From Nitrosopumilus sp. (GTDB taxonomy: Archaea; Thermoproteota; Nitrososphaeria; Nitrososphaerales; Nitrosopumilaceae), in NCBI GenBank assembly GCA_965207075.1, contig CBDBLO010000002.1, forward strand, positions 1,280,001 through 1,344,000: a stretch of DNA of 64,000 nt, in the 5' to 3' direction. Below, piece after piece: positions 1 through 57,801 of the stretch (position 1 is its first letter; each line of letters starts with the position of its first letter). A model generated the notes under the pieces. The model saw nothing but the letters and a program-made list of their open reading frames with translations. It was not told the origin of the DNA and did no database searches. The translations under genes and the position numbers were made by a program.

Positions 1-1653
1 ACGTTCGGGGACTCGGAGATTGGGGGCGGCACCCCAGTTACGGTAGAGCATACAAGCGTGAACCCCAACAAGGCCCTGCACATAGGACATGTCCGCAACA
101 TCATAATCGGGGACACTGTGTCCCGGATACTCAGAAAGTCGGGGCACGCGGTCAAGGTGCTCAACTATGTGGACGACTCGGGGCTACAGGTGGCCGACGT
201 GGTCGTGGGGTTCAGGCACCTCGGGTTCCCGATGGATCCGCCGCCTGGAAAGACGTTTGCACAGTACTGCGGCGAAGAGGTCTACGTGAAAACAACGCAG
301 AGATACGATTCGGACCCGTCCCTTGAGGGACTGAGACGCGATACCCTGAAGGAGATTGAGGGCGGCTCGACTGAGGCCGCCAAGCTTGCAGGCATGATAA
401 CGCGCCGCGTGCTTGCCGACCAGCTTCAGACGTGCTGGCGCCTCTCCGTATACTACGACTGCCTCAACTTTGAGTCGCACATAATACGGTCCGGCATGTG
501 GGATGCGGTATTTGGCAAGCTCAAGGACATGAACTTGGTGGATCTCGACCGTAGCGGGGGCAAGAACGACGGGTGCTGGGTGATACGGGACGCGCACGGG
601 GCCGGCGCTGGCCGGGGCGAGGGCGACGGCACCAGTGACGGCAGCGCGCGCGACGCCAAAAAGGAGAGCCCGCCTGAGGAGAACCGTGACAAGGTCATCG
701 TGAGAAGCAACGGGACTGCCACGTACATAGCAAAGGACATTCCGTACGCGGCGTGGAAGCTGGGACTGGTCGACGACCCGTTCGGATATGTAAGGTACGA
801 CGCCGAGCAGCCCGGGGGCACCACCCTGTGGCAGACTGCCCTTGGCCGATCGGATTGCGCGATGAACTTTGCCGGGGAGCGCGTAATTACGGTAATTGAC
901 TCGCGGCAGTCGGGGCTGCAGAGAATCGTCTCGGATCTGATGGGGCGCTTCAAGTCAAGCAGGTCCGCGTACGTGCATCTGGCCTACGAGTCAGTCACGC
1001 TGAGCTCTGGCACGGCAAGGACGCTCGGGATGGAGACGGACAAGCGGCAGGCCCACATGTCCGGCCGACTCGGGCTCTATGTGGACGCGGATTCCGTGTA
1101 CGAGGAGCTGCGCAAAAAGGCGGCGGCCGAGACGCTCAAGCGCCACCCTGACATGGACGATTCGGATGTCGCGCGCATATCCCGCGACATCTCTGTTGGG
1201 ACGATAAGGTATGAGATGATAAAGCAGGATCTGGACAAGATAATCACGTTTGACATGGAGCGATCGCTGAGTCTGGAGGGGGATACGGCATCCTACATAC
1301 AGTACGCGGGGGCAAGGGCGTCGAGGATCCTTGAGAAGGCGGGGCGGGAGCCTCCCGACAAAATTGACTTTGGTCTACTCGGGGGGGAGGATGCCGAGAT
1401 TGCGCTGATCAGGGCGATTGGCTCCTTTGAAATTGCAGTGGAGGACGCGGCAAGGAACCTCTCGCCCAAGGTCGTTGCAAGGTACTGCCACGACTTGGCC
1501 GTGTCGTTCAACGCGTTTTACGAGCGCAGCCGGGTGCTGGGGCTCGGTGATCCGGGCTTGGAGGACGCGCGCCTGTATCTGGTCCGCTCGTTCCGGCTCG
1601 CCGTCACGAGGGCTCTGGGCCTTGTGGGGATCTCGGCGCCGGACGTGATGTAG
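1..1653 (+). CDS. argS: Arginyl-tRNA synthetase (5'-truncated by window edge)
   Basis: EHTSVNPNKALHIGH (HIGH motif), RSNGTATYIAKDI, MSGRLG (KMSK-like), C-terminal anticodon-binding domain. Confidence 0.95.
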   Translation, partial: TFGDSEIGGGTPVTVEHTSVNPNKALHIGHVRNIIIGDTVSRILRKSGHAVKVLNYVDDSGLQVADVVVGFRHLGFPMDPPPGKTFAQYCGEEVYVKTTQRYDSDPSLEGLRRDTLKEIEGGSTEAAKLAGMITRRVLADQLQTCWRLSVYYDCLNFESHIIRSGMWDAVFGKLKDMNLVDLDRSGGKNDGCWVIRDAHGAGAGRGEGDGTSDGSARDAKKESPPEENRDKVIVRSNGTATYIAKDIPYAAWKLGLVDDPFGYVRYDAEQPGGTTLWQTALGRSDCAMNFAGERVITVIDSRQSGLQRIVSDLMGRFKSSRSAYVHLAYESVTLSSGTARTLGMETDKRQAHMSGRLGLYVDADSVYEELRKKAAAETLKRHPDMDDSDVARISRDISVGTIRYEMIKQDLDKIITFDMERSLSLEGDTASYIQYAGARASRILEKAGREPPDKIDFGLLGGEDAEIALIRAIGSFEIAVEDAARNLSPKVVARYCHDLAVSFNAFYERSRVLGLGDPGLEDARLYLVRSFRLAVTRALGLVGISAPDVM

Positions 1654-1695
1654 CGTGCGCGCGGCCGCACGCCCCCTGTTGCAACGCGCCTCCGC

Positions 1696-2211
1696 TCACC
1701 CGTATATCGACGACTCTGTGGGTCCGCCGCTTGGAGCCGCCGTCCCCTTTGCGAGGTTGCCCAGGTTGGCGCGGAGTATCTTCTGCATGTGTCCTGACAC
1801 CCTGGCCACGTTGTCCCACGCGTTGTGAAACGTCACCCTGTCAAGAACCTGCTCGTCGACGTGCGAGAATATCGCAAGCCCCACCACCTCGCCTCCGGCG
1901 TTAACCCACTGGTGTCCCACGCCGCAGGCGGTGCATATGCCGCTTATCTCGATTGCCGCCTTTGCAAACGCGGGATTGCTTGGCACCAGCAGCTTTGTGT
2001 CCTGCGGCGTGAACCTCATATTCACGTTGATGTGTATGCGGTCTTCCCTGTTCGCGTTCTTGCTTACTATGATGTTGTCGCCCACATAGAACTGCCAATC
2101 GATGGTCTGGGTCTTGGACCTGACGACCTGGGTCTGATCCTCGTACTTTACCTTTGTTATCTTGATGTATTCCTCCACCAGCTGCTTCATCTGTTCCGAG
2201 GTCTTTGGCAT
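1696..2211 (-). CDS. Hypothetical protein
   Basis: 171-aa ATG-started ORF with protein-like composition, downstream of 2250-2606 on the same strand. Confidence 0.7.
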   Translation of the reverse strand: MPKTSEQMKQLVEEYIKITKVKYEDQTQVVRSKTQTIDWQFYVGDNIIVSKNANREDRIHINVNMRFTPQDTKLLVPSNPAFAKAAIEISGICTACGVGHQWVNAGGEVVGLAIFSHVDEQVLDRVTFHNAWDNVARVSGHMQKILRANLGNLAKGTAAPSGGPTESSIYG

Positions 2212-2249
2212 CCTGCCGTCTCCCCCCTCATCGTCCCTCTGCCCGTACG

Positions 2250-2606
2250 TCAGGCCGACGGCACTGCAAGCCCGGCGTCGCCGCCCTTCTTTTCAAACAC
2301 CCTGTATTCGCCGATTACTGAGCCGCATCCCCCGCACTGGTACTGTCCCCTCTCGACGAGCAGGAGGTTCTCAGAGACCTGCTCGGGCCCCTCGCTGCCG
2401 CCCTCCGGGCTTATCTTGGGCGGCCCGTCAAACTCTTTCTTGCAGTCGTTGCACGCATGCCCTGACATCTTGGACTGCTCTATCTTTCCGATTGGCGCCA
2501 GGAACAGTTTGCCGACGCCCAAGTCCGCCGCCTTTGCCTGCTCCTCAGTCAGGTCCGCGACTATGCTGCCGCCGGAGCCAAACAACCTGAGTTCCGTCAT
2601 GGGCAT
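2250..2606 (-). CDS. Conserved thaumarchaeal Zn-ribbon protein
   Basis: CNDC...CGGC pairs; start chosen at MPMTEL. Confidence 0.7.
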   Translation of the reverse strand: MPMTELRLFGSGGSIVADLTEEQAKAADLGVGKLFLAPIGKIEQSKMSGHACNDCKKEFDGPPKISPEGGSEGPEQVSENLLLVERGQYQCGGCGSVIGEYRVFEKKGGDAGLAVPSA

Positions 2607-3053
2607 GCTACGGACGCCATTCAATTATACGTTATGGATCCTTTTTGGGTTTCGTTCAGACTGACCCGGCCTCTGACAGATTGGTGGCGGCCGGCGTGAC
2701 TACTGGAGGCCAGCTCCCGATGATGCCGCCTGCCCTGGCGCGGCAGGCGCCGTTCGCGGGCCCGGATGCTGCACCGCGCAAACCGGGCGCGGCATCTGGC
2801 TTCTGGACGCGCAGGATCCCGTTACGTGGAAAATGACTGCAGCCCTTCGGGCAGCATTATGAGGAACCCGGCGGGAGCGCCCGTCTGTCAATCCGGGCGG
2901 CCCTGATACCGCGTCCGCGCGCAGCTACGGCGCGCATGCGCGAACACTCGGCCTTGGGCCGGGACGATTAAGGTGGGCGGGAATACCAAAAGGGGGCGCA
3001 GCCGCGGAACCGCACCAGACAAAACTAATAACAGTTGGCCGTCTTGGCACGGC

Positions 3054-3863
3054 ATGATCGAGCACCTCTGGCTTATCCCGCTCGGGTTTGCATCGGGACT
3101 GCTTGGCTCTATGACCGGGCTAGGTGGCGGGATAATTACGGTACCGGTGATGGTGTTCCTCGGGTTCCCGCACACGCTGGCGGCAAGCAACAGCCTGCTT
3201 GCCACGTTCAGCAACGCGGTCGCCTCGACCATCTCATACTCCCGGCAGAAGCGCATCGAGTACGCTTTGGGCCTCAAGCTCGGGCTGCTGTCGCTTCCTG
3301 GCACGGTGGTGGGAGCATGGGTGACGTCAGACGTGGCGCACCACAACTTTCAGTTCCTGTTCGGGCTGGTGCTCGTCGTATCGGCCGCGTACCTGCTGCT
3401 AAAGCCGAGGCTTGCGGGGAGCGCGGGGGAGTCGGCGGCCGGCGGCAGCAAGAACCCGCTGTACTCGTTTCCGGGGCTGATGATCGTGTTTCTGGCCGGG
3501 GTGAGCTTTTTTGCCGGCATGACCTCGTCCTTTTTTGGCATAGGGGGAGGCATAATATTCGTCCCCCTGATGGTCGCGGGCCTCGGGATGTCGATAAAGA
3601 GGGCCGCCCCGACGTCGCAGATGATACTGCTGTTCGCGTCGCTCTCCGGAATCACGGTGCACGGGTTCCTTGGCAATCCCGATCTCCTGCAGGCCTCGTT
3701 CATGGCGATTGGCGCCTTTGCCGGGGGAATAACCGGGGCGCGGCTGTCGATAGAGGCAAAAGAGCGCAACCTCAGACTGCTGACGTTTGGCGTGATACTT
3801 GCGGCGTCTGCAAAGATGTTCTACGACTCGGTGACTTCAACCGTGGATCCGGACCTGTCATGA
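3054..3863 (+). CDS. TauE/SafE (TSUP) family membrane exporter
   Basis: Two GxGGG-containing hydrophobic repeats (GLGGGIITVP; GIGGGIIFVP); start reassigned to ATG 3054. Confidence 0.85.
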   Translation: MIEHLWLIPLGFASGLLGSMTGLGGGIITVPVMVFLGFPHTLAASNSLLATFSNAVASTISYSRQKRIEYALGLKLGLLSLPGTVVGAWVTSDVAHHNFQFLFGLVLVVSAAYLLLKPRLAGSAGESAAGGSKNPLYSFPGLMIVFLAGVSFFAGMTSSFFGIGGGIIFVPLMVAGLGMSIKRAAPTSQMILLFASLSGITVHGFLGNPDLLQASFMAIGAFAGGITGARLSIEAKERNLRLLTFGVILAASAKMFYDSVTSTVDPDLS

Positions 3864-4319
3864 CTTCTTGGCCGGCGGGTTCTTCCTCACCCTGTAGATG
3901 TTGCGCCTCGAGAGCAGCACGAGCTTTCCATCCTCGCCTGCTGCCTCGTAGTCCACTGAGATCCTGCCATACTCGCCGCTTACGTCCTCCACGCCCGATA
4001 TGACATAGGTCACCCTCAGCGTGTCCCCCGTATAGACCGGGGCGAGAAACCTCGTGCCGCGGCCGTCCCAGTCAGGATCACCGTCGTAGCCGGACAGTAT
4101 GATGTGGTTGCCGTATATCTCCTCGAGCCTTGAGAACTCGCCCTCGATCCTGGAGAGGAGCGCCCTGCCGGGTATGAGGCGCCCGGCGGCTCCGCCACCC
4201 TCCTCCAAAAACGCGTTCTTTACGCGTGCAAACTCCATGTACTTGTCAAGCTCTTTCTCGGCGATGGTAAACTCGGACTGCAGCCTGTCGCCCGTGCTAA
4301 ACTCGACGAACCTCTTCAT
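3858..4319 (-). CDS. MaoC-like hotdog-fold dehydratase
   Basis: RFLAPVYTGDTL motif typical of MaoC/hotdog fold. Confidence 0.7.
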   Translation of the reverse strand: MKRFVEFSTGDRLQSEFTIAEKELDKYMEFARVKNAFLEEGGGAAGRLIPGRALLSRIEGEFSRLEEIYGNHIILSGYDGDPDWDGRGTRFLAPVYTGDTLRVTYVISGVEDVSGEYGRISVDYEAAGEDGKLVLLSRRNIYRVRKNPPAKKS

Positions 4320-34664: not shown

Positions 34665-36001
34665 TGTAGAGTCGGAAAATGATGTCACGGTGTGTCGTGA
34701 CATTGCTCCACGCATGCCTGGACTCCATATGAATTTTGAATTCCCGGTTCCGCTGGGCCAGCCCAAGCGGCCGGCAGCGTGCCCGACGTGCGCGAACTGC
34801 CGCGAAAGGTACGCTTTTACATGATCGTGCGCAGCATACGCTGGAGGGTCCTACGGCGGGGTTGACTGAGGTGTCTTACCCGTCGTCATCCTTGTATGAC
34901 CGGCCCTCTGGGAGCCTCCGCTCGCGGTATGCGTCCGCGGGCGTCTGCCCGTACAGGCTGCCGTGCGGCTTGTTGTTGTGGTTCCTGACGAACCTGGCAG
35001 TCGGGTCGCTCTCCATTGCGGCGGGGGCGCCAAACGGGGCCGCCGTGCCCGGCGGTCCCGCAACGTCGGCAAAGTGCCCGACCTTGTACTTGTACTCCTT
35101 GAACACGCGCTCCGCCTTGCCATTGGTCTGGGGATGCCCCACGCGCGCCAGGATCTGCTTTACGCCGGCGTCCCCGAGGTGCTCCTCAAAGTGCGTGCGC
35201 CCCCTTTCGCGCTTTGCCTCGGACTCCATGGCGTAGAACTGGGATCCGTGGTCGGTCAGGACCGAGTACGGCGTCCCGTGCGCCAGGCAGGCCTGCTTGA
35301 AGACCGCGGTGGCGTTCTCGGACGTGGCGCGGTCAAACACGCCGTGTCCGACGATGTACCGGGACGAGTCGTCCACGTATACGATCAGCCACCTCCCGTC
35401 CTCCAGCTGCGTATAGTCCGCGTGCCAGAGCGTGTTGCTGTGCCTCCGCTCGTACCTCACGTACCTGCGCTGCCTCTTCTTGGCGCGCTCCTCGCGCGCC
35501 AGCCCGTTCTCAAGCAGCACCCGGTGCACTACATCCTTTGGGACGTGGTCCCCCGCGTTCCTGATGTGCCAGTATGTGGCAGACGCGCCGTTTACGACCC
35601 GGCCGAACGCGGCCAAAACCGCGGAGTGCTCCCTGCGCCCCGGCTCGCCCTTCCGGTGCCTGCCGGGGCGCCTTGGAAGGTACAGTATCCGCCCCGTGTC
35701 GAGGCGCCTGAACCGGCTCCAGATGCGCTGCACCTGCCTTATGCAGACCTTCAGGATGCCTGCAATCGTCTTGTTGCTTGTCCCCCTCCTCTTTTCGCGG
35801 ACGATGAACCTTGCGTCAAGCGTGTCCAGCTTGCGTATGGGCTTCCTGCCCTTCTCGCTGGCGGTCTTGAGTATGCGCTCGGTCTCCTCCCTTTGTTCCT
35901 GTATGAGGACATGTTCGTCATACTTGGTTTGAGGTGTCATTACGCCTCCCTCCATGTCGGCTCTCTTATGCGTCGGGGTGACATGATTCCCCGACTCTTC
36001 A
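34665..36001 (-). mobile_element. IS481-family insertion sequence, copy 1 (1337 bp)
   Basis: Imperfect ~24-bp TIRs TGAAGAGTCGGGGAATCATGTCAC / TGTAGAGTCGGAAAATGATGTCAC; 15-bp TSD TGCAGCCAAAAACGG at 34650-34664 and 36002-36016. Confidence 0.95.
34876..35940 (-). CDS. IS481-family transposase (HTH + rve integrase core)
   Basis: WHADYT, LTDHGSQF, PQTNGKAERVF DDE triad; ATG preceded by GGAGG. Confidence 0.92.
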   Translation of the reverse strand: MTPQTKYDEHVLIQEQREETERILKTASEKGRKPIRKLDTLDARFIVREKRRGTSNKTIAGILKVCIRQVQRIWSRFRRLDTGRILYLPRRPGRHRKGEPGRREHSAVLAAFGRVVNGASATYWHIRNAGDHVPKDVVHRVLLENGLAREERAKKRQRRYVRYERRHSNTLWHADYTQLEDGRWLIVYVDDSSRYIVGHGVFDRATSENATAVFKQACLAHGTPYSVLTDHGSQFYAMESEAKRERGRTHFEEHLGDAGVKQILARVGHPQTNGKAERVFKEYKYKVGHFADVAGPPGTAAPFGAPAAMESDPTARFVRNHNNKPHGSLYGQTPADAYRERRLPEGRSYKDDDG

Positions 36002-40585: not shown

Positions 40586-41905
40586 TCACAGACCTATGCG
40601 GTAATAGTCCCATCTCTCGGGATCAAACCGGGCCACGAACTCGGCCTCCTCCTTGCTCACCCTGGCGCTGACCACGTCCCGCAGCGCAAAGCTTGTGAGG
40701 TATGTGTATTTCTTGGCGCTCGCCTGCATGATGAACATGTTGCGCATGCCGCTTCCGCCTCCCAGCCCCCAGTACCCTATGCTGAGTCCCATTGGCTCCA
40801 GGAATATGGTGTTGGACATGCCGTGGTTCTCGTCGCGTATCTCCTCTCTGAGCTTGTATCTCTCAAGCGGCCCGCCCTTTGCATACCCGACAATCTTGCC
40901 GTTCCGGCCGTTTACGCGCAGCGTGGTCAGTACGGTGCCCGGATCCATCACAGACTCGCCAAACGCAGCGTGCTTGAACTGGAGCGGGGAGGGCAGCTGC
41001 TCAAATATGTTGTACAGCGTGCTGATAAACTCTGGATCGGTCCTGGTGTTTATTGACTCGATTGTCGGTATCAGCTTTAGGTTCTCGTACGCGTGTTCGG
41101 CCTGTATTGTAATCTCTTCCTGCCTGGTCTGGAAGAACGACAGCACTGTGCTGTAAAAGTTCTTTCTCATCTGGTTTGGAAGTATCTGCATTATGGCCCC
41201 TATCATGTCGTCCTCGTTATTCAGCAGGTCCTCAAAGTACGTGACCGCCCTGCGCACTATCAGCGAGGGGCTCCATCCAAGGGCGTGGGCGTTCATCTTT
41301 GCCATCTCCATGGCCTTTGCAAAGTCGCCCAGGGCGTATCCGCTCATGCGGTCAACGACGGACAGGTACCTGCCCATCTCCATCACGTGACTCCTGAATT
41401 CCTGGTCGTCCCTGGCCATGTCGGAGCGCTCAAAGCACTGGAGCGCCCTCTCTTCTGCACTTTTCCTCATCTCGCCGTCCCAAGGATACGTGGTGCGCAG
41501 TATCAGCACCTTTACAATCTCAAAGTCTATTCCGGCCGCCCTGATCTGTTTCTGCAGGTTCTCGTCTCTGGATATGAAGTTCAGAACGCTCTCCTCGTGC
41601 GGCTTGTCCACGTTCTTTAGCGGATCCAGGTCGTGAAAGAGCGCCGCGACATACAGGTGCTCTATGTCGCTCTGCGTAATGTCGATCCTGTCCTGATCCA
41701 TGGCAAGCAGGGTCATGTACGTGACCTCCAGCTCGTGCCTGATGTTGTGGTATCCGTAGTATTTGGTGCCAAGCCCCTTGGTCTCAAAGAGGTTTATCGT
41801 ATAGTCTAGCATCTCCCTGTAGCATTCCTTATCGATGCCGCGCCGCCTCATAAGGTCCAGTATTGTCTCCTTTGTTGCGTGCGTGTATGCTGCAGTCACC
41901 TGCAT
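40586..41905 (-). CDS. HD-domain protein with GNAT-like C-terminus
   Basis: YHNIRHELEV...AALFHD; start reassigned to MQVTAA. Confidence 0.75.
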   Translation of the reverse strand: MQVTAAYTHATKETILDLMRRRGIDKECYREMLDYTINLFETKGLGTKYYGYHNIRHELEVTYMTLLAMDQDRIDITQSDIEHLYVAALFHDLDPLKNVDKPHEESVLNFISRDENLQKQIRAAGIDFEIVKVLILRTTYPWDGEMRKSAEERALQCFERSDMARDDQEFRSHVMEMGRYLSVVDRMSGYALGDFAKAMEMAKMNAHALGWSPSLIVRRAVTYFEDLLNNEDDMIGAIMQILPNQMRKNFYSTVLSFFQTRQEEITIQAEHAYENLKLIPTIESINTRTDPEFISTLYNIFEQLPSPLQFKHAAFGESVMDPGTVLTTLRVNGRNGKIVGYAKGGPLERYKLREEIRDENHGMSNTIFLEPMGLSIGYWGLGGGSGMRNMFIMQASAKKYTYLTSFALRDVVSARVSKEEAEFVARFDPERWDYYRIGL

Positions 41906-42235
41906 ATCATATTGGTTTCGTGGCGTGCTTTTAAAGATCACCGCGCACGGCCGGGGGCGACGGCCGTGCGCGAATGCCCGTATGGCTGCTCCGCTTGGCG
42001 GCTGTGCGACAGGCGTGGCTCTGGGCTGCACACGGCCGGGCGACTGCGGGGTCTGGGCGCGAAGGGCGGTTTTTTTACCGGAGACTGGGCGCGGCTGGCC
42101 GATTAACCGAGCTTGACACACAAGCCTCTCTTTGACATCATAGTAGATCACGGGGCGCCGCATGAACAAGGTTGGGAATCATATAGTCAAGTAAACAACC
42201 ACAATCAATATACCGTACTCTGCCGTATGTAACGC

Positions 42236-43654
42236 GTGTTCACCTACAGAAAGTACCGCGTGCCCGTGAGGCTGACCACGGAGGAAGAGTCAGAGATATT
42301 GAGACTCCGCGACGCGCAGCGCCAGGCATACAACTGGGCCGTGAAACGCCTCAAGTCAGGGTGGAGTACTGGCAGCGAGTATGACATGCAAAAGCTGCAT
42401 ACGGTAGAGAGGCGCACATTCCCGTGGATGGGGGAGGCGCCCGCGGCCGTACAGAGGGCCGGCATCCGCGACGCGTTTACGGCGGCCAAAATGTCCGTCA
42501 GGCGCGGGCGTGGTATAGGAGACGGCCTGAAATACAGGTCGAGGAAGCGCGGGGGGCGCGGGCCGCTCAGGTGCGGGCTACCTCCCGTAGTGGTGGGCGG
42601 ACGTAAGATCAAGCTGCCGCGCTTCGGCACGGTTGAATGCCGAGGCCCCGTGCTAGACAAGCTGCTGGAGCACGAGCCCCGGTCGTACGAGTTTGTTGAC
42701 ATGTCACAGTCCAAAGACGGCAGGAATCCCCGGTACGTACTGTACGTGTCCTGCAGGGTGCGCGTGCCGGAGTCGTGGAACTCGCCGGCATCTGCGGCAG
42801 CCGCGGCCGCTGTCGCGCCGCCAAGGCGCGCCACCAAGGGCATCGACCGTGGAGTGGTGGAACCGACCGTGGTGGCAGCGCTGGATCCGCACGGAGAGGC
42901 CGTGGATAAGACGTCGTACGACACGGCCTCCCCGTTCAGGGAGAACCGCAGCTGGTACCAACGGCGGCAGCGCAGGATGTCCAATATGAACCCGCGTTCG
43001 GGCAGGTTCCAAAGACTGCGGCGCAGGATGCGCAAAAGAATGCAGAAGGTGGCGAACCGCCGGACGTACGCGGAGTGCGTCGCGGCCAAGCACGTGTGCG
43101 ACGACCACGCCCCGCACACCATAGTGTTTGAGGGCCTCAGGCTCGGGGAGATGACACGGAGGGGAAGGGGACAGTACAAGAAGGGCTTGAACCGCGAGAT
43201 GAGGTTCGTGCGCCATTCTGTGATAGAACAGAGAGTGCGCAACCGCGCGGAACTGACGGGTATCCGCGTCATCACGGTGGATCCCGGATATACGTCTCAG
43301 GAGTGCGCGCGGTGCAGGCACGTTGCAAAGAAGTCCCGTGTAACGAGGGACATGTTCAAGTGCGTCAGATGTCATTACATTCAACAGGCGGACATCAATG
43401 CCGCCATGGTAATCGGGAGACTCGGCCTGCCAACCGTTCCCGATACAGTGCATGAGGCAGGCCCTCCGGAGGTCGGAATGCCCTTCGTGAGACGCGAACT
43501 GGATGCGCGCCTCAACTGCTTCACCGAGGCGGTCGGGGGCGTCAACGGACGGCGCGACAACCAAGCGCCGGCGCATCACCTTGCCAAAGGCATGGAGAAA
43601 GAACGTCGCAAAGTATCAAAGGATGGAGGGCCGCGCAGGCGGCAACTCACCTAA
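42236..43654 (+). CDS. tnpB: TnpB RNA-guided endonuclease
   Basis: N-terminal HTH (QRQAYNWA), RuvC-I GIDRG, RuvC-II VFEGL, Zn finger CARC/CVRC after YTSQ, RuvC-III ADINAA. Confidence 0.93.
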   Translation: MFTYRKYRVPVRLTTEEESEILRLRDAQRQAYNWAVKRLKSGWSTGSEYDMQKLHTVERRTFPWMGEAPAAVQRAGIRDAFTAAKMSVRRGRGIGDGLKYRSRKRGGRGPLRCGLPPVVVGGRKIKLPRFGTVECRGPVLDKLLEHEPRSYEFVDMSQSKDGRNPRYVLYVSCRVRVPESWNSPASAAAAAAVAPPRRATKGIDRGVVEPTVVAALDPHGEAVDKTSYDTASPFRENRSWYQRRQRRMSNMNPRSGRFQRLRRRMRKRMQKVANRRTYAECVAAKHVCDDHAPHTIVFEGLRLGEMTRRGRGQYKKGLNREMRFVRHSVIEQRVRNRAELTGIRVITVDPGYTSQECARCRHVAKKSRVTRDMFKCVRCHYIQQADINAAMVIGRLGLPTVPDTVHEAGPPEVGMPFVRRELDARLNCFTEAVGGVNGRRDNQAPAHHLAKGMEKERRKVSKDGGPRRRQLT

Positions 43655-43667
43655 GTATATAATTCCC
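43440..43667 (+). ncRNA. Putative omegaRNA scaffold overlapping the tnpB 3' end
   Basis: Nested helices 43502-43508/43571-43577, 43508-43513/43526-43531, 43551-43555/43565-43569 under a low-conservation C-terminal tail; 5' boundary is a guess. Confidence 0.5.
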
Positions 43668-43703
43668 ACAAGGTTCAATACTCCTGGTCTTGAACGGATC
43701 CGC

Positions 43704-44240
43704 ATGGGCGGGGAGGATAACCACACGCGCGGCGCCAAGCAGAATAGCATCCTGCAACTGCGCACCGAGTTGTCAAACCTTGCCTCCCTGGGCTCTTTTG
43801 AGTTTGTCGCACGCTTTGGCGGCGATGCCGACGACGGGCCCGCCACGTACGTCCTGCGCGACGTGACTGTAAGCGGGCCGCCTCCCGAACGGGACGTCCC
43901 GGCGCGCGGTTCTGGGGGGGACAACCGGACCTATTTCACGAAGAGCCCGATATGCCGCATAAACTGTTCTGCGCGCGATGTATCCATACTTGATGAGATC
44001 ACGCCCAGGATGCTGGGGCCCGGAACGGACTTTGCGGCAGTGCGGGTGGACATCCGTGCTGAGTCCGGAGGCGTGACGGCCAGCCTTGTAGCAAACGTTA
44101 CGGGCAGTGTGGAGGAGCCGTCGGAGTCGCGCGTGCAGCTCGTACTTGTGGTGGTGGATGTGGTAGATCCTCGGCTCGGCTCCAGCATGGGGCGCGACGA
44201 GCTGCAGAATATTTCCAAAACAGGGCCGAAAAACCCCTGA
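43704..44240 (+). CDS. Hypothetical protein
   Basis: ATG 43704 in the 245-aa ORF; beta-rich composition. Confidence 0.6.
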   Translation: MGGEDNHTRGAKQNSILQLRTELSNLASLGSFEFVARFGGDADDGPATYVLRDVTVSGPPPERDVPARGSGGDNRTYFTKSPICRINCSARDVSILDEITPRMLGPGTDFAAVRVDIRAESGGVTASLVANVTGSVEEPSESRVQLVLVVVDVVDPRLGSSMGRDELQNISKTGPKNP

Positions 44241-56464: not shown

Positions 56465-57801
56465 TGAAGAGTCGGGGAATCATGTCACCCCGACGCATAA
56501 GAGAGCCGACATGGAGGGAGGCGTAATGACACCTCAAACCAAGTATGACGAACATGTCCTCATACAGGAACAAAGGGAGGAGACCGAGCGCATACTCAAG
56601 ACCGCCAGCGAGAAGGGCAGGAAGCCCATACGCAAGCTGGACACGCTTGACGCAAGGTTCATCGTCCGCGAAAAGAGGAGGGGGACAAGCAACAAGACGA
56701 TTGCAGGCATCCTGAAGGTCTGCATAAGGCAGGTGCAGCGCATCTGGAGCCGGTTCAGGCGCCTCGACACGGGGCGGATACTGTACCTTCCAAGGCGCCC
56801 CGGCAGGCACCGGAAGGGCGAGCCGGGGCGCAGGGAGCACTCCGCGGTTTTGGCCGCGTTCGGCCGGGTCGTAAACGGCGCGTCTGCCACATACTGGCAC
56901 ATCAGGAACGCGGGGGACCACGTCCCAAAGGACGCCGTGCACCGGGTGCTGCTTGAGAACGGGCTGGCGCGCGAGGAGCACGCCAAGAAGAGGCAGCGCA
57001 GGTACGTGAGGTACGAGCGGAGGCACAGCAACACGCTCTGGCACACGGACTATACGCAGCTGGAGGACGGGAGGTGGCTGATCGTATACGTGGACGACTC
57101 GTCCCGGTACATCGTCGGACACGGCGTGTTTGACCGCGCCACGTCCGAGAACGCCACCGCGGTCTTCAAGCAGGCCTGCCTGGCGCACGGGACGCCGTAC
57201 TCGGTCCTGACCGACCACGGATCCCAGTTCTACGCCATGGAGTCCGAGGCAAAGCGCGAAAGGGGGCGCACGCACTTTGAGGAGCACCTCGGGGACGCCG
57301 GCGTAAAGCAGATCCTGGCGCGCGTGGGGCATCCCCAGACCAATGGCAAGGCGGAGCGCGTGTTCAAGGAGTACAAGTACAAGGTGGGGCACTTTGCCGA
57401 CGTTGCGGGACCGCCGGGCACGGCGGCCCCGTTTGGCGCCCCCGCCGCAATGGAGAGCGACCCGACTGCCAGGTTCGTCAGGAACCACAACAACAAGCCG
57501 CACGGCAGCCTGTACGGGCAGACGCCCGCGGACGCATACCGCGAGCGGAGGCTCCCAGAGGGCCGGTCATACAAGGATGACGACGGGTAAGACACCTCAG
57601 TCAACCCCGCCGTAGGACCCTCCAGCGTATGCTGCGCACGATCATGTAAAAGCGTACCTTTCGCGGCAGTTCGCGCACGTCGGGCACGCTGCCGGCCGCT
57701 TGGGCTGGCCCAGCGGAACCGGGAATTCAAAATTCATATGGAGTCCAGGCATGCGTGGAGCAATGTCACGACACACCGTGACATCATTTTCCGACTCTAC
57801 A
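56465..57801 (+). mobile_element. IS481-family insertion sequence, copy 2 (1337 bp)
   Basis: Same TIRs as copy 1; 15-bp TSD GTTTCTGGCCCTGAC at 56450-56464 and 57802-57816. Confidence 0.95.
56526..57590 (+). CDS. IS481-family transposase
   Basis: Differs from copy 1 at three visible residues (V/A, R/H, A/T); DDE intact. Confidence 0.92.
   Translation: MTPQTKYDEHVLIQEQREETERILKTASEKGRKPIRKLDTLDARFIVREKRRGTSNKTIAGILKVCIRQVQRIWSRFRRLDTGRILYLPRRPGRHRKGEPGRREHSAVLAAFGRVVNGASATYWHIRNAGDHVPKDAVHRVLLENGLAREEHAKKRQRRYVRYERRHSNTLWHTDYTQLEDGRWLIVYVDDSSRYIVGHGVFDRATSENATAVFKQACLAHGTPYSVLTDHGSQFYAMESEAKRERGRTHFEEHLGDAGVKQILARVGHPQTNGKAERVFKEYKYKVGHFADVAGPPGTAAPFGAPAAMESDPTARFVRNHNNKPHGSLYGQTPADAYRERRLPEGRSYKDDDG

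Follow-up and report, generated by a model that had tools for sequence, protein, structure and literature searches.

A tnpB-only mobile insertion cassette with IS1595-type ends in Nitrosopumilus and its relatives among the Nitrosopumilaceae

TnpB, from which Cas12 descends, also serves as a compact genome editor. To our knowledge, what it does in nature has been worked out only for elements of the IS605 and IS607 types, whose excision leaves no scar. Among DDE-type elements, the ISNwi1 group of the IS1595 family makes 8-bp target duplications, has the terminus ggnnatTAT, and carries metabolic or restriction-modification passenger genes. In mobile insertion cassettes, of which MIC231 from Bacillus cereus is one, the inverted ends of an IS family enclose a passenger, and the cassette is moved in trans. 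IS200/IS605 elements, as described in part of a 2026 review (PMC13565253), lack inverted ends and do not duplicate their target. The first-pass annotation of the locus studied here took IS605 and IS607 elements as the normal carriers of prokaryotic TnpB, and a view that confines TnpB to them is outdated: the main text of Altae-Tran et al. 2023 (PMC10691335) describes six DDE-associated TnpB branches, DDE-1 to DDE-6, with inverted ends, and the same part of the 2026 review names ISL2, IS630, and IS1031 for DDE-associated TnpB. A link between TnpB and DDE transposons in prokaryotes has therefore been in print since 2023, and the general kind is known even though the partnership is rare.

Positions 42174 to 43667 (plus strand) of the 64,000-nucleotide stretch of DNA from the ammonia-oxidizing archaeon Nitrosopumilus that we analyzed, hereafter the window, constitute a mobile insertion cassette of 1,494 bp in which two IS1595-type ends enclose tnpB alone. 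The left terminal inverted repeat, GGGAATCATATAGTCAAGT (42174 to 42192, plus strand), carries the terminal motif found on IS1595-transposase elements of a sister-genus genome, and the right one (43649 to 43667, minus strand; reverse complement GGGAATTATATACTTAGGT) encloses the tnpB stop codon. These 19-bp ends match at 15/19 positions, and each directly adjoins one exact copy of ACAAGGTT, at 42166 to 42173 and 43668 to 43675 (neither with a strand), the left copy being defined by the window letters and by the spacing in empty alleles. With at most one mismatch allowed, GGGAATYATATA occurs exactly twice in the window; shuffled windows contained a mean of 0.14 occurrences, and 0/100 shuffles had two or more. 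Inspection of open reading frames found no transposase gene within the unit, and the host site of insertion is intergenic. This architecture had been proposed in the first-pass annotation, and we recovered the same unit, repeat, and ends, along with a tnpB stop inside the right end and no transposase. The combination of inverted ends and an 8-bp duplication represents the footprint of a DDE transposase rather than of IS200/IS605 or IS607 transposition. The Nitrosopumilus genome itself (95.4% complete) had no match to the IS1595 transposase profile PF12762, to Y1_Tnp (PF01797), or to the resolvase or serine transposase profile PF00239. As the unit encodes no IS1595 transposase and its genome has no PF12762 match, it is a derivative and not an insertion sequence, leaving the window copy orphaned and non-autonomous.

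The tnpB gene (42236 to 43654, plus strand) encodes 472 amino acids from a GTG start and ends with a TAA stop at 43652 to 43654. Its product scored above the cut-offs of Pfam PF07282 (58.1 bits; cut-off, 26.3), Pfam PF01385 (32.5 bits; cut-off, 30.5), and NCBIfam NF040570 guided_TnpB (135.5 bits over residues 8 to 395; cut-off, 100). Residues D204, E299, and D386, which we take from sequence context to belong to the RuvC motifs, and the zinc-finger cysteines C357, C360, C376, and C379 were unchanged across six aligned paralogues, so that the earlier reading of an intact tnpB with a RuvC triad and zinc finger holds.

The same footprint recurs across the family. Perfect 8/8 duplications flank 33 of the 48 related tnpB elements from Nitrosopumilaceae genomes, every duplication being different, and five further elements have 7/8 duplications, for 38/48 altogether; this set omits copy E, a duplicate of copy D, and loci without resolved ends. 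Such different duplications beside the same ends on other tnpB copies were what the first-pass annotation had proposed looking for. A scan of 27 loci found no GG-initiated end pair at nine (L141, L143, L125, L134, L135, L145, L129, L138, and L117) and, at L130 and L146, a weak pair that is probably spurious; L125 then proved to be a composite element, and the remaining 10 loci lie outside the set of 48. A metagenome scan yielded three loci only, and an order-level protein search of 201 genomes matched the Nitrosopumilus genome itself and a single distant genome.

Contigs from related strains carry the site without the element. A 3,075-nt contig of run X1 aligned to 41700 to 42122 and, after 42 unaligned letters, resumed at 43667, a spacing that places 43 letters ahead of ACAAGGTT, equal to window positions 42123 to 42165. 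Similarly, a 674-nt contig of run X2 aligned to 41868 to 42076 and resumed at 43667 after 89 letters. These two public runs come from two studies, their spacing agrees with expectation to 0 and 1 nt, and the strains are roughly 90 to 95% similar to the window. Both contigs represent empty-site alleles with the spacing of a single ACAAGGTT; the single copy is deduced from this spacing and from there being no difference at 43668 to 43696 among the differences listed, with 48 more differences beyond those listed. The empty allele would read left flank, one ACAAGGTT, and then CAATACTCC. An empty allele had been suggested as a check in the first-pass annotation, and these contigs provide it. Some X2 contigs depart from the alignment at 43667/43668 into two other flanks, corresponding to right-end junctions elsewhere. 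The empty site was not recoverable from species representatives, in the nearest of which the flanking gene was 63 to 70% identical and intergenic DNA did not align.

These observations bear on whether the locus is an ordinary IS1341-type (IS200/IS605) or IS607-type tnpB element whose ends and 8-bp repeat arose by chance. Such elements are the commonest kind of prokaryotic tnpB-only element according to part of PMC13565253 and the main text of PMC10691335, and the protein does match the IS607_TnpB and IS200_TnpB models, but only weakly and far below cut-off (52.7 versus 350 and 46.9 versus 425, respectively). Considering that the architecture recurs with different repeats in the family, that the empty site is spaced as for a single 8-mer, that neither Y1 nor serine transposases had a match in the genome, and that an exact 8-mer at these fixed positions has a chance probability of 1.5e-5, we regard this explanation as extremely improbable.

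Transposase-bearing elements with matching ends were found in other genomes, namely G295, G266, and G334 only. In G295, which belongs to a sister genus, GGGAATTATATM occurred 56 times versus 0 for the reversed control. Two G295 elements, L148 (2,837 bp, duplication AAAATTAT) and L149 (2,690 bp, duplication CAATTTTA), have GGGAATTATATA at both termini and encode an IS1595 transposase that matches PF12762 at 1e-40 and, for L148, NF033547 with 173 bits, so that the IS1595-like partner anticipated by the earlier annotation exists in a sister genus. The first 16 nt of the L149 end are those of the right end in the window, and GGGAATTAT and GGGAATCAT fit by eye what we take to be the ISNwi1-group consensus, ggnnatTAT. 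Two additional IS1595 elements of that genus, L175 and L178, also have 8-bp duplications, and all four elements encode the transposase without tnpB. Two composites, again from the sister genus, combine both genes: L124 (unit 1427 to 3935, GGGTCTAG at both sides) and L125 (unit 1445 to 4006, CCGGTATC at both sides) each hold tnpB and a PF12762 transposase, and in both the 3' end of tnpB adjoins an outer end. The tnpB-only and transposase-bearing elements have the terminal 12 to 16 nt in common and differ in their inner end sequences, so recognition of the window ends in trans is something that we infer. Mobilization in trans by a DDE enzyme, as first proposed, is thus supported by partner elements that share the end in other genomes but not by an IS1595 transposase in the Nitrosopumilus genome, implying that it happened in the past or would depend on an element arriving from outside. 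The core proposal of a tnpB in a DDE-type non-autonomous transposon is supported, and none of the three outcomes named as contrary to it (IS605/IS607-type boundaries without duplications on other copies, no empty site, and no DDE element with the same ends) was found.

Two candidate partners were set aside. Genome G223 has IS1595 ends of CGCTCATATTCC and IS6 ends of GGTTCC...TGCAA, neither of which matches the window ends, and this mismatch had for a time counted against the IS1595 reading. A 3,084-bp end pair in the same genome, L096, contains tnpB and a 373-amino-acid open reading frame that by eye resembles an IS110-type transposase, and we read it as a nested insertion.

Whether TnpB inserts the element, unaided or together with a host factor, and produces the 8-bp duplication through its own staggered cut can be judged from the same elements. 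There are more tnpB-only than transposase-bearing copies, and the window's own genome lacks the transposase, both points in favor of this explanation. However, the same ends and 8-bp duplications occur on the tnpB-free IS1595 elements, and we know of no strand-transfer activity for TnpB, which together make insertion by TnpB highly implausible.

The Nitrosopumilus genome does encode an IS6-family (PF13610) transposase at C2:1024439-1025368, within an element whose end is GGTACTGGTGCAAATTCGG. This is the sole DDE gene of the genome found so far in an element that has both an 8-bp duplication and inverted ends starting with GG, and IS6-like ends also frame paralogues B, C, H, F, and G and the relatives L055, L056, and L061, with the left end of paralogue B matching the end of the IS6 element at 15/19 positions in a by-eye count. 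This enzyme, rather than an IS1595 transposase, might therefore have mobilized the window copy as well. We consider this very unlikely, as the window ends (GGGAATYATATA...) had no match to the IS6-like ends within four mismatches and agree with those of IS1595-transposase elements over 12 to 16 nt. The tnpB copies are diverged (52 to 61% identity), and a TnpB tree, from which the partly masked L061 was left out, requires at least two switches between IS1595-type and IS6-like frames within one TnpB clade. Elements of both frames also bear unrelated passengers, such as a methylase-HNH gene.

A candidate omega-RNA scaffold (43470 to 43667, plus strand), proposed from covariation, overlaps the 3' end of tnpB and runs into the right end. 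Compensatory changes occurred in 14/29 pairs among paralogues and in 8/65 pairs in a sister clade, in a region that also codes for protein, and the single-sequence fold gave z = -1.9. Rfam returned only three chance-level matches, all under gathering scores, and a search for the stretch among RNA sequencing runs gave no match. The last 180 nt of the elements are 0.81 to 0.87 identical versus about 0.70 across the open reading frame, and the frame stops 5 nt ahead of the right end in 10/11 sister-clade elements. In the clade of the window copy the conserved core stops short of the right end by about 57 nt, which makes the start of the putative guide uncertain. If the RNA exits the right end, the right copy of ACAAGGTT would presumably form the first 8 nt of the guide. 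A sigma-70 promoter scan was disregarded as inapplicable to an archaeon.

The sequence preceding the duplication was not uniform between clades. In the L152-type sister clade, 13/14 elements had a G at position -1 relative to the left duplication and 1/14 had the mirror C at position +1 on the right side (binomial, 1.6e-6; Fisher, 1e-5), a motif noticed post hoc in small samples of related elements and possibly marking a candidate TAM position. The window's own clade had G at -1 in 5/6 elements and TG in 4/6, the window copy itself having A, not G (CATGA followed by ACAAGGTT). The largest sister clade had no motif, with G at -1 in 7/18 elements (P = 0.28).

Taken as a whole, these results are likely best explained by an IS1595-framed tnpB cassette that was mobilized in trans and whose TnpB would promote homing by guide-RNA-directed cutting of the empty allele. 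The window copy would descend from a composite of transposase and tnpB, and an IS1595 transposase since lost from the genome would have moved the cassette in trans, leaving it now stranded. TnpB would act as an RNA-guided nuclease, with the scaffold at the 3' end of its gene and transcription crossing the right end and continuing into the duplication and the flank. The resulting RNA would match the empty allele over the 8 bp and the right flank, and it would direct cutting where a suitable motif sits 5' of those 8 bp. An occupied allele would escape, since there the right-hand ACAAGGTT copy follows the transposon terminus (...TTCCC). Repair using an occupied copy would in turn reinstate the insertion or spread it, giving TnpB a role in homing that we infer from these features. 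The cutting of empty sites suggested in the first-pass annotation thus has indirect support.

The mobility part of this explanation could be right and TnpB still be a passive passenger or serve otherwise, in interference with rival DNA or in regulation, with G at -1 reflecting an end-specific bias of the transposase. The motif is missing in the largest clade and at the window copy, the unrelated passengers mentioned above show that other genes ride in these frames, and DDE excision already leaves a break, such that a homing nuclease adds less (part of the 2026 review PMC13565253). Set against these points, the catalytic residues are retained in all six aligned paralogues, the RNA-like 3' structure is conserved with covariation, the frame stops at the same distance from the right end in 10/11 sister-clade elements, and the motif is asymmetric by tnpB orientation, an asymmetry that a transposase with a symmetric preference does not account for. 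We therefore consider a TnpB without a homing role rather unlikely. A broader form of the homing explanation, which we offer tentatively and at somewhat less than even chance, is that TnpB and its guide RNA together make up a transferable homing unit that can join unrelated DDE transposons (IS1595 and IS6) of marine Thaumarchaeota, with the duplication and right flank as guide, any sequence that happens to stand 5' of the 8 bp as TAM, and the TTCCC terminus as an anti-TAM that spares occupied sites. Insertions beside a TAM would then be preferentially kept or copied, leading to the G at -1 in the L152-type clade. If so, the "cut the empty site" principle known from IS605 elements would apply to duplication-making transposons as well.

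The role of a guide-RNA nuclease in a duplication-making DDE transposon becomes directly testable in this family, which offers exact boundaries, an empty allele, autonomous composites of IS1595 transposase and tnpB beside numerous tnpB-only cassettes, changes of frame between two DDE types within one TnpB clade, and a candidate TAM position. Even if homing fails, the locus represents a clean new DDE-framed TnpB cassette from an archaeal lineage with no example in the literature searched.

In relation to the DDE-1 to DDE-6 branches, as described by Altae-Tran et al. 2023, the elements here are alike in having TnpB within an inverted-repeat transposon with the tnpB 3' end near one end, and in the presence of solo tnpB copies with the ends of transposase-bearing relatives, which suggests mobilization in trans. 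They differ in their frames, which are IS1595-type here and IS6-like in paralogues, neither family name appearing in the main text of PMC10691335; in their archaeal Nitrosopumilaceae host and mostly tnpB-only copies; and in having changed frame at least twice within one TnpB clade. Like IS1341-group elements, the window unit is a lone, non-autonomous tnpB of about 1.4 to 1.5 kb with diverged rather than near-identical copies, but it has inverted ends and a duplication, and its genome has no Y1 transposase. It likewise differs from IS607 elements in its duplication and in a genome with no serine recombinase match. The eukaryotic Fanzors are similarly TnpB-family nucleases carried by duplication-making TIR/DDE transposons, and the present family offers a prokaryotic parallel to those partnerships. 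The Fanzor-like association first proposed thus stands as an analogy; the host here is an archaeal MAG-like genome, none of the 18 hits of a PDB sequence search with the window TnpB was named as a Fanzor, and the likeness appears convergent rather than one of shown descent. The ISNwi1 group resembles the present family in its 8-bp duplication, in a terminus fitting by eye the presumed consensus ggnnatTAT, and in elements of 2.1 to 2.8 kb with passengers and transposases matching PF12762, PF12760, and NF033547, and it differs from the window unit, which has no transposase and whose passenger is a protein of an RNA-guided nuclease family. Finally, as in MIC231, IS-family ends enclose a passenger gene and no transposase, with the difference that the passenger in the window may itself act on the inheritance of the element.

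The tnpB gene at 42236-43654 (+ strand; 472 aa, GTG start) is the sole gene of the 1,494-bp unit at 42174-43667, and terminates at a stop codon within the right end of the unit. As the first-pass annotation had described, the direct repeat ACAAGGTT occurs exactly at 42166-42173 and 43668-43675, and each copy adjoins an inverted end, GGGAATCATATAGTCAAGT on the left (42174-42192) and GGGAATTATATACTTAGGT, given as the reverse complement, on the right (43649-43667), with 15 of 19 positions shared. The 12-nt terminal motif has no sites in the 64 kb besides these two ends; shuffled controls averaged 0.14 matches, and two matches were observed in 0 of 100 shuffles. Divergent genes flank the unit, a minus-strand ORF with a weak HD-domain match and an ORF of no assigned function beginning at 43704. 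The protein exceeded the cut-offs of both PF07282 and PF01385 in Pfam and matched the NCBIfam guided_TnpB model with 135.5 bits over residues 8-395, and its scores against the IS607- and IS200-specific TnpB models were far under their cut-offs. Six aligned paralogues all retain D204, E299, D386, and the four cysteines of the zinc finger. The window protein is a TnpB of full length.

The unit is a genuine insertion, and the repeat flanking it is a genuine target-site duplication. Contigs lacking it, the empty allele that the first-pass annotation had proposed to look for, were present in two public sequencing runs from two studies (X1 and X2), in strains about 90-95% similar. The X1 contig aligned over 41700-42122, continued with 42 unaligned letters, and aligned again from 43667, leaving 43 letters ahead of ACAAGGTT, the exact length of 42123-42165; the same count for the X2 empty-site contig was 90 versus 89. 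A single ACAAGGTT was judged by this spacing, and none of the differences listed for the empty-site contigs fell within 43668-43696, with 48 more differences outside that listing. X2 also contained contigs of the 3' part of a similar element (19 differences in a 445-nt piece), which part from the alignment at 43667/43668 into two different flanks, and the right boundary is therefore that of a mobile unit. The occupied form was found in runs X14 and X18, where 0.95-0.98 of the sampled words were present, and X14 is possibly the sample of origin.

The genome itself (2.23 Mb in 2 contigs, 95.4% complete) contains seven full-length tnpB paralogues with 52-56% identity and one internally deleted copy. 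Elsewhere, relatives are scarce. A large protein collection yielded 42 proteins at E <= 1e-5 (top identity, 67%), the species genomes 16 loci from three Nitrosopumilaceae records, and metagenomes 3 loci. A family-level survey found relatives in 11 of 401 genomes, from two genera, g1 (4 of 98 genomes besides the own genome) and its sister genus g28 (6 of 10), and an order-level survey in 2 of 201. For 48 elements oriented by tnpB, we checked the 8 nt immediately beyond the two ends against each other; some rows of this table are non-independent, and 11 loci without clear ends by script were left out of it. The flanking 8-mers matched at 8/8 in 33 elements and at 7/8 in 5 more, and the 8-mer differed every time, bearing out the expectation that other tnpB copies carry duplications of their own. 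Failing rows include copy C of the own genome with L052 and L061, which have common flanks, the pair of copies F and G, and L124, which proved to belong to a larger unit.

Several of these loci have features of their own. C (C2:639558-641081), L052, L061, and L118 differ in their ends and have in common the left flank GACTTGTGAG(A/T)AAC(C); three of them also have the right flank TCAA(T/C)AAGAGATAA in common, with no duplication, and that of L118 differs. Such common flanks could mean that the elements are nested within another repeat or that the unit is longer. In copy G, the left end is duplicated in tandem 35 bp apart (C2:58954-59007), and taking the outer copy as the boundary restores the 8-bp duplication TGTCAAGC. 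A 567-bp internally deleted C-type element (C2:1472339-1472905) keeps both ends, its duplication is exact (TGCAATGA, read along tnpB), and it is therefore MITE-like. A comparison of C2:1-80000 against C2:2120787-2179734 and contig C1 showed that the initial 33 kb of C2 recurs at 92-99% identity near its other end and that C2:36.8-80 kb recurs in C1, a pattern suggestive of strain variants left uncollapsed or of a large duplication. Copies D and E form one such repeat pair rather than separate insertions, and copy F has no tnpB partner in the repeated stretch.

No IS1595 transposase, Y1 transposase, or serine recombinase was found in the own genome, which is 95.4% complete. The motif GGGAATTATATM is abundant in g28, with 56 matches in genome G295 versus 0 for a reversed control. 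Its +/- pairs there lie mostly 1.4-1.6 kb apart, and the pairs fetched contain tnpB. Two pairs, L148 (duplication AAAATTAT) and L149 (duplication CAATTTTA), span 2.7-2.8 kb and each encode a 320-aa IS1595-type protein and a methylase-HNH passenger. Both proteins match PF12762 at 1e-40 and have the IS1595 zinc ribbon, and the L148 protein also matches NF033547. The first 16 nt of the L149 end are those of the window copy's right end. Two more IS1595 elements, L175 and L178, have GGGAATTATAG ends and lie between 8-bp duplications. Two composites, L124 (G266; exact 8-bp duplication GGGTCTAG) and L125 (G334; CCGGTATC), hold tnpB and an IS1595 transposase in a single 2.5-kb unit, with an end-like sequence internally between the two genes and the tnpB 3' end adjoining an outer end. 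The IS1595 assignment made from the sequence alone thus holds at the family level, since these like-ended elements and composites encode the transposase; the window copy's ends fit the ISNwi1 consensus by eye and may belong to that subgroup. Composites of the L124/L125 kind are likely parents of the tnpB-only cassettes. L150 (G266:C1:1710543-1710860), a 318-bp unit that shares the GGGAATTATATAC ends and has a duplication matching at 6/8, is a MITE of the IS1595-type family. Another tnpB element, L096 (G223:C1:2273443-2277526), contains between both ends a 373-aa ORF (2312-3433, - strand) that by eye looks like an IS110-type transposase.

A second set of tnpB elements, copies B, C, H, F, and G of the own genome and L053, L055, L056, and L061 elsewhere, has ends of another type, GGnnCTGnTGCnAAT, which look like those bounding a 4.7-kb element of the own genome (C2:1024050-1028728, duplication GCTGATCA) that codes for an IS6-family transposase (PF13610, 47.5 bits) and a methylase-HNH protein. 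An N6/N4 DNA methylase fused to HNH is the same kind of passenger as in the IS1595 elements L148 and L149 of the other genus. Four elements with IS6-like ends, exact 8-bp duplications, and varied cargo occur in the own genome: the 4.7-kb element, C2:712458-714347 (GCAATCTC), C2:1513954-1517763 (TTTAGACA), and C2:2130836-2133062 (TCCCGCCG). Besides the methylase-HNH element, one of the four carries a membrane-like ORF with PAEA repeats plus a transposase remnant of 15 aa; another carries nested IS5-like, rve-type, and DUF3800 genes; and another carries ORFs without assignment. With the IS6 transposase core as query, tblastn picked up six genomic loci with weak matches (E of about 0.7) that all cover an identical span, including two within the window (about 35104-35391, - strand, and 57075-57362, + strand); these may be copies of one DDE insertion sequence from a different family.

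A maximum-likelihood tree built from 24 TnpBs places the window copy and D, both with IS1595-type ends, within a clade otherwise framed by IS6-like ends, with D as sister of L056 (support 95/98). Parsimony gives three changes of end type, at least two of them forced by well-supported branches. The tnpB module has thus switched DDE frames.

Across the last 230-240 nt of the elements, we observed a conserved fold. Compensatory changes affect 14 of 29 pairs among elements of the window's clade and 8 of 65 pairs among those of the g28 clade, whose terminal stem includes inner sequence of the right end. The elements are about 0.70 identical at the nucleotide level in the ORF, rising to 0.81-0.87 over the last 180 nt. 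The covarying region is also coding, and the reading frame stops 5 nt short of the right end in 10 of 11 g28 elements; in the window's clade, the conserved core ends about 57 nt ahead of that end. This structure fits a predicted guide RNA scaffold that would be read out into the flank.

The base 5' of the left duplication (-1, oriented by tnpB) follows a pattern that depends on clade, a motif noticed after looking rather than beforehand. In the L152-type clade, G occupies -1 in 13 of 14 elements, often as ATNG or NATG, and C stands at the mirror right-hand position just once in 14 (p = 1.6e-6; Fisher 1e-5). Of 6 elements in the window's clade, 5 have the G and 4 have TG; the window copy itself reads CATGA|ACAAGGTT and so lacks the G. 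The main g28 clade has no signal (G in 7 of 18). The right-hand duplication copy is always preceded by ...TTCCC. A symmetric transposase preference would leave no difference between left and right such as 13/14 versus 1/14. The asymmetry would be expected if TnpB reads a TAM on the empty allele, and the -1 G is a candidate for such a TAM.

In titles and abstracts, we found no paper on TnpB with IS1595, and our literature search found nothing joining TnpB with "Nitrosopumil" or "mobile insertion cassette." Passages of Altae-Tran et al. 2023 (PMC10691335) already describe DDE-associated TnpB branches and solo tnpB copies carrying the ends of transposase-bearing relatives, and part of a 2026 review (PMC13565253) names ISL2, IS630, and IS1031. 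IS1595, IS26, and "Nitroso" are absent from the main text of PMC10691335, whose supplements may list them. The principle is already known; new here are the DDE frames and the host lineage, together with the empty allele, the composites beside cassettes, the frame switching, and the candidate TAM geometry.
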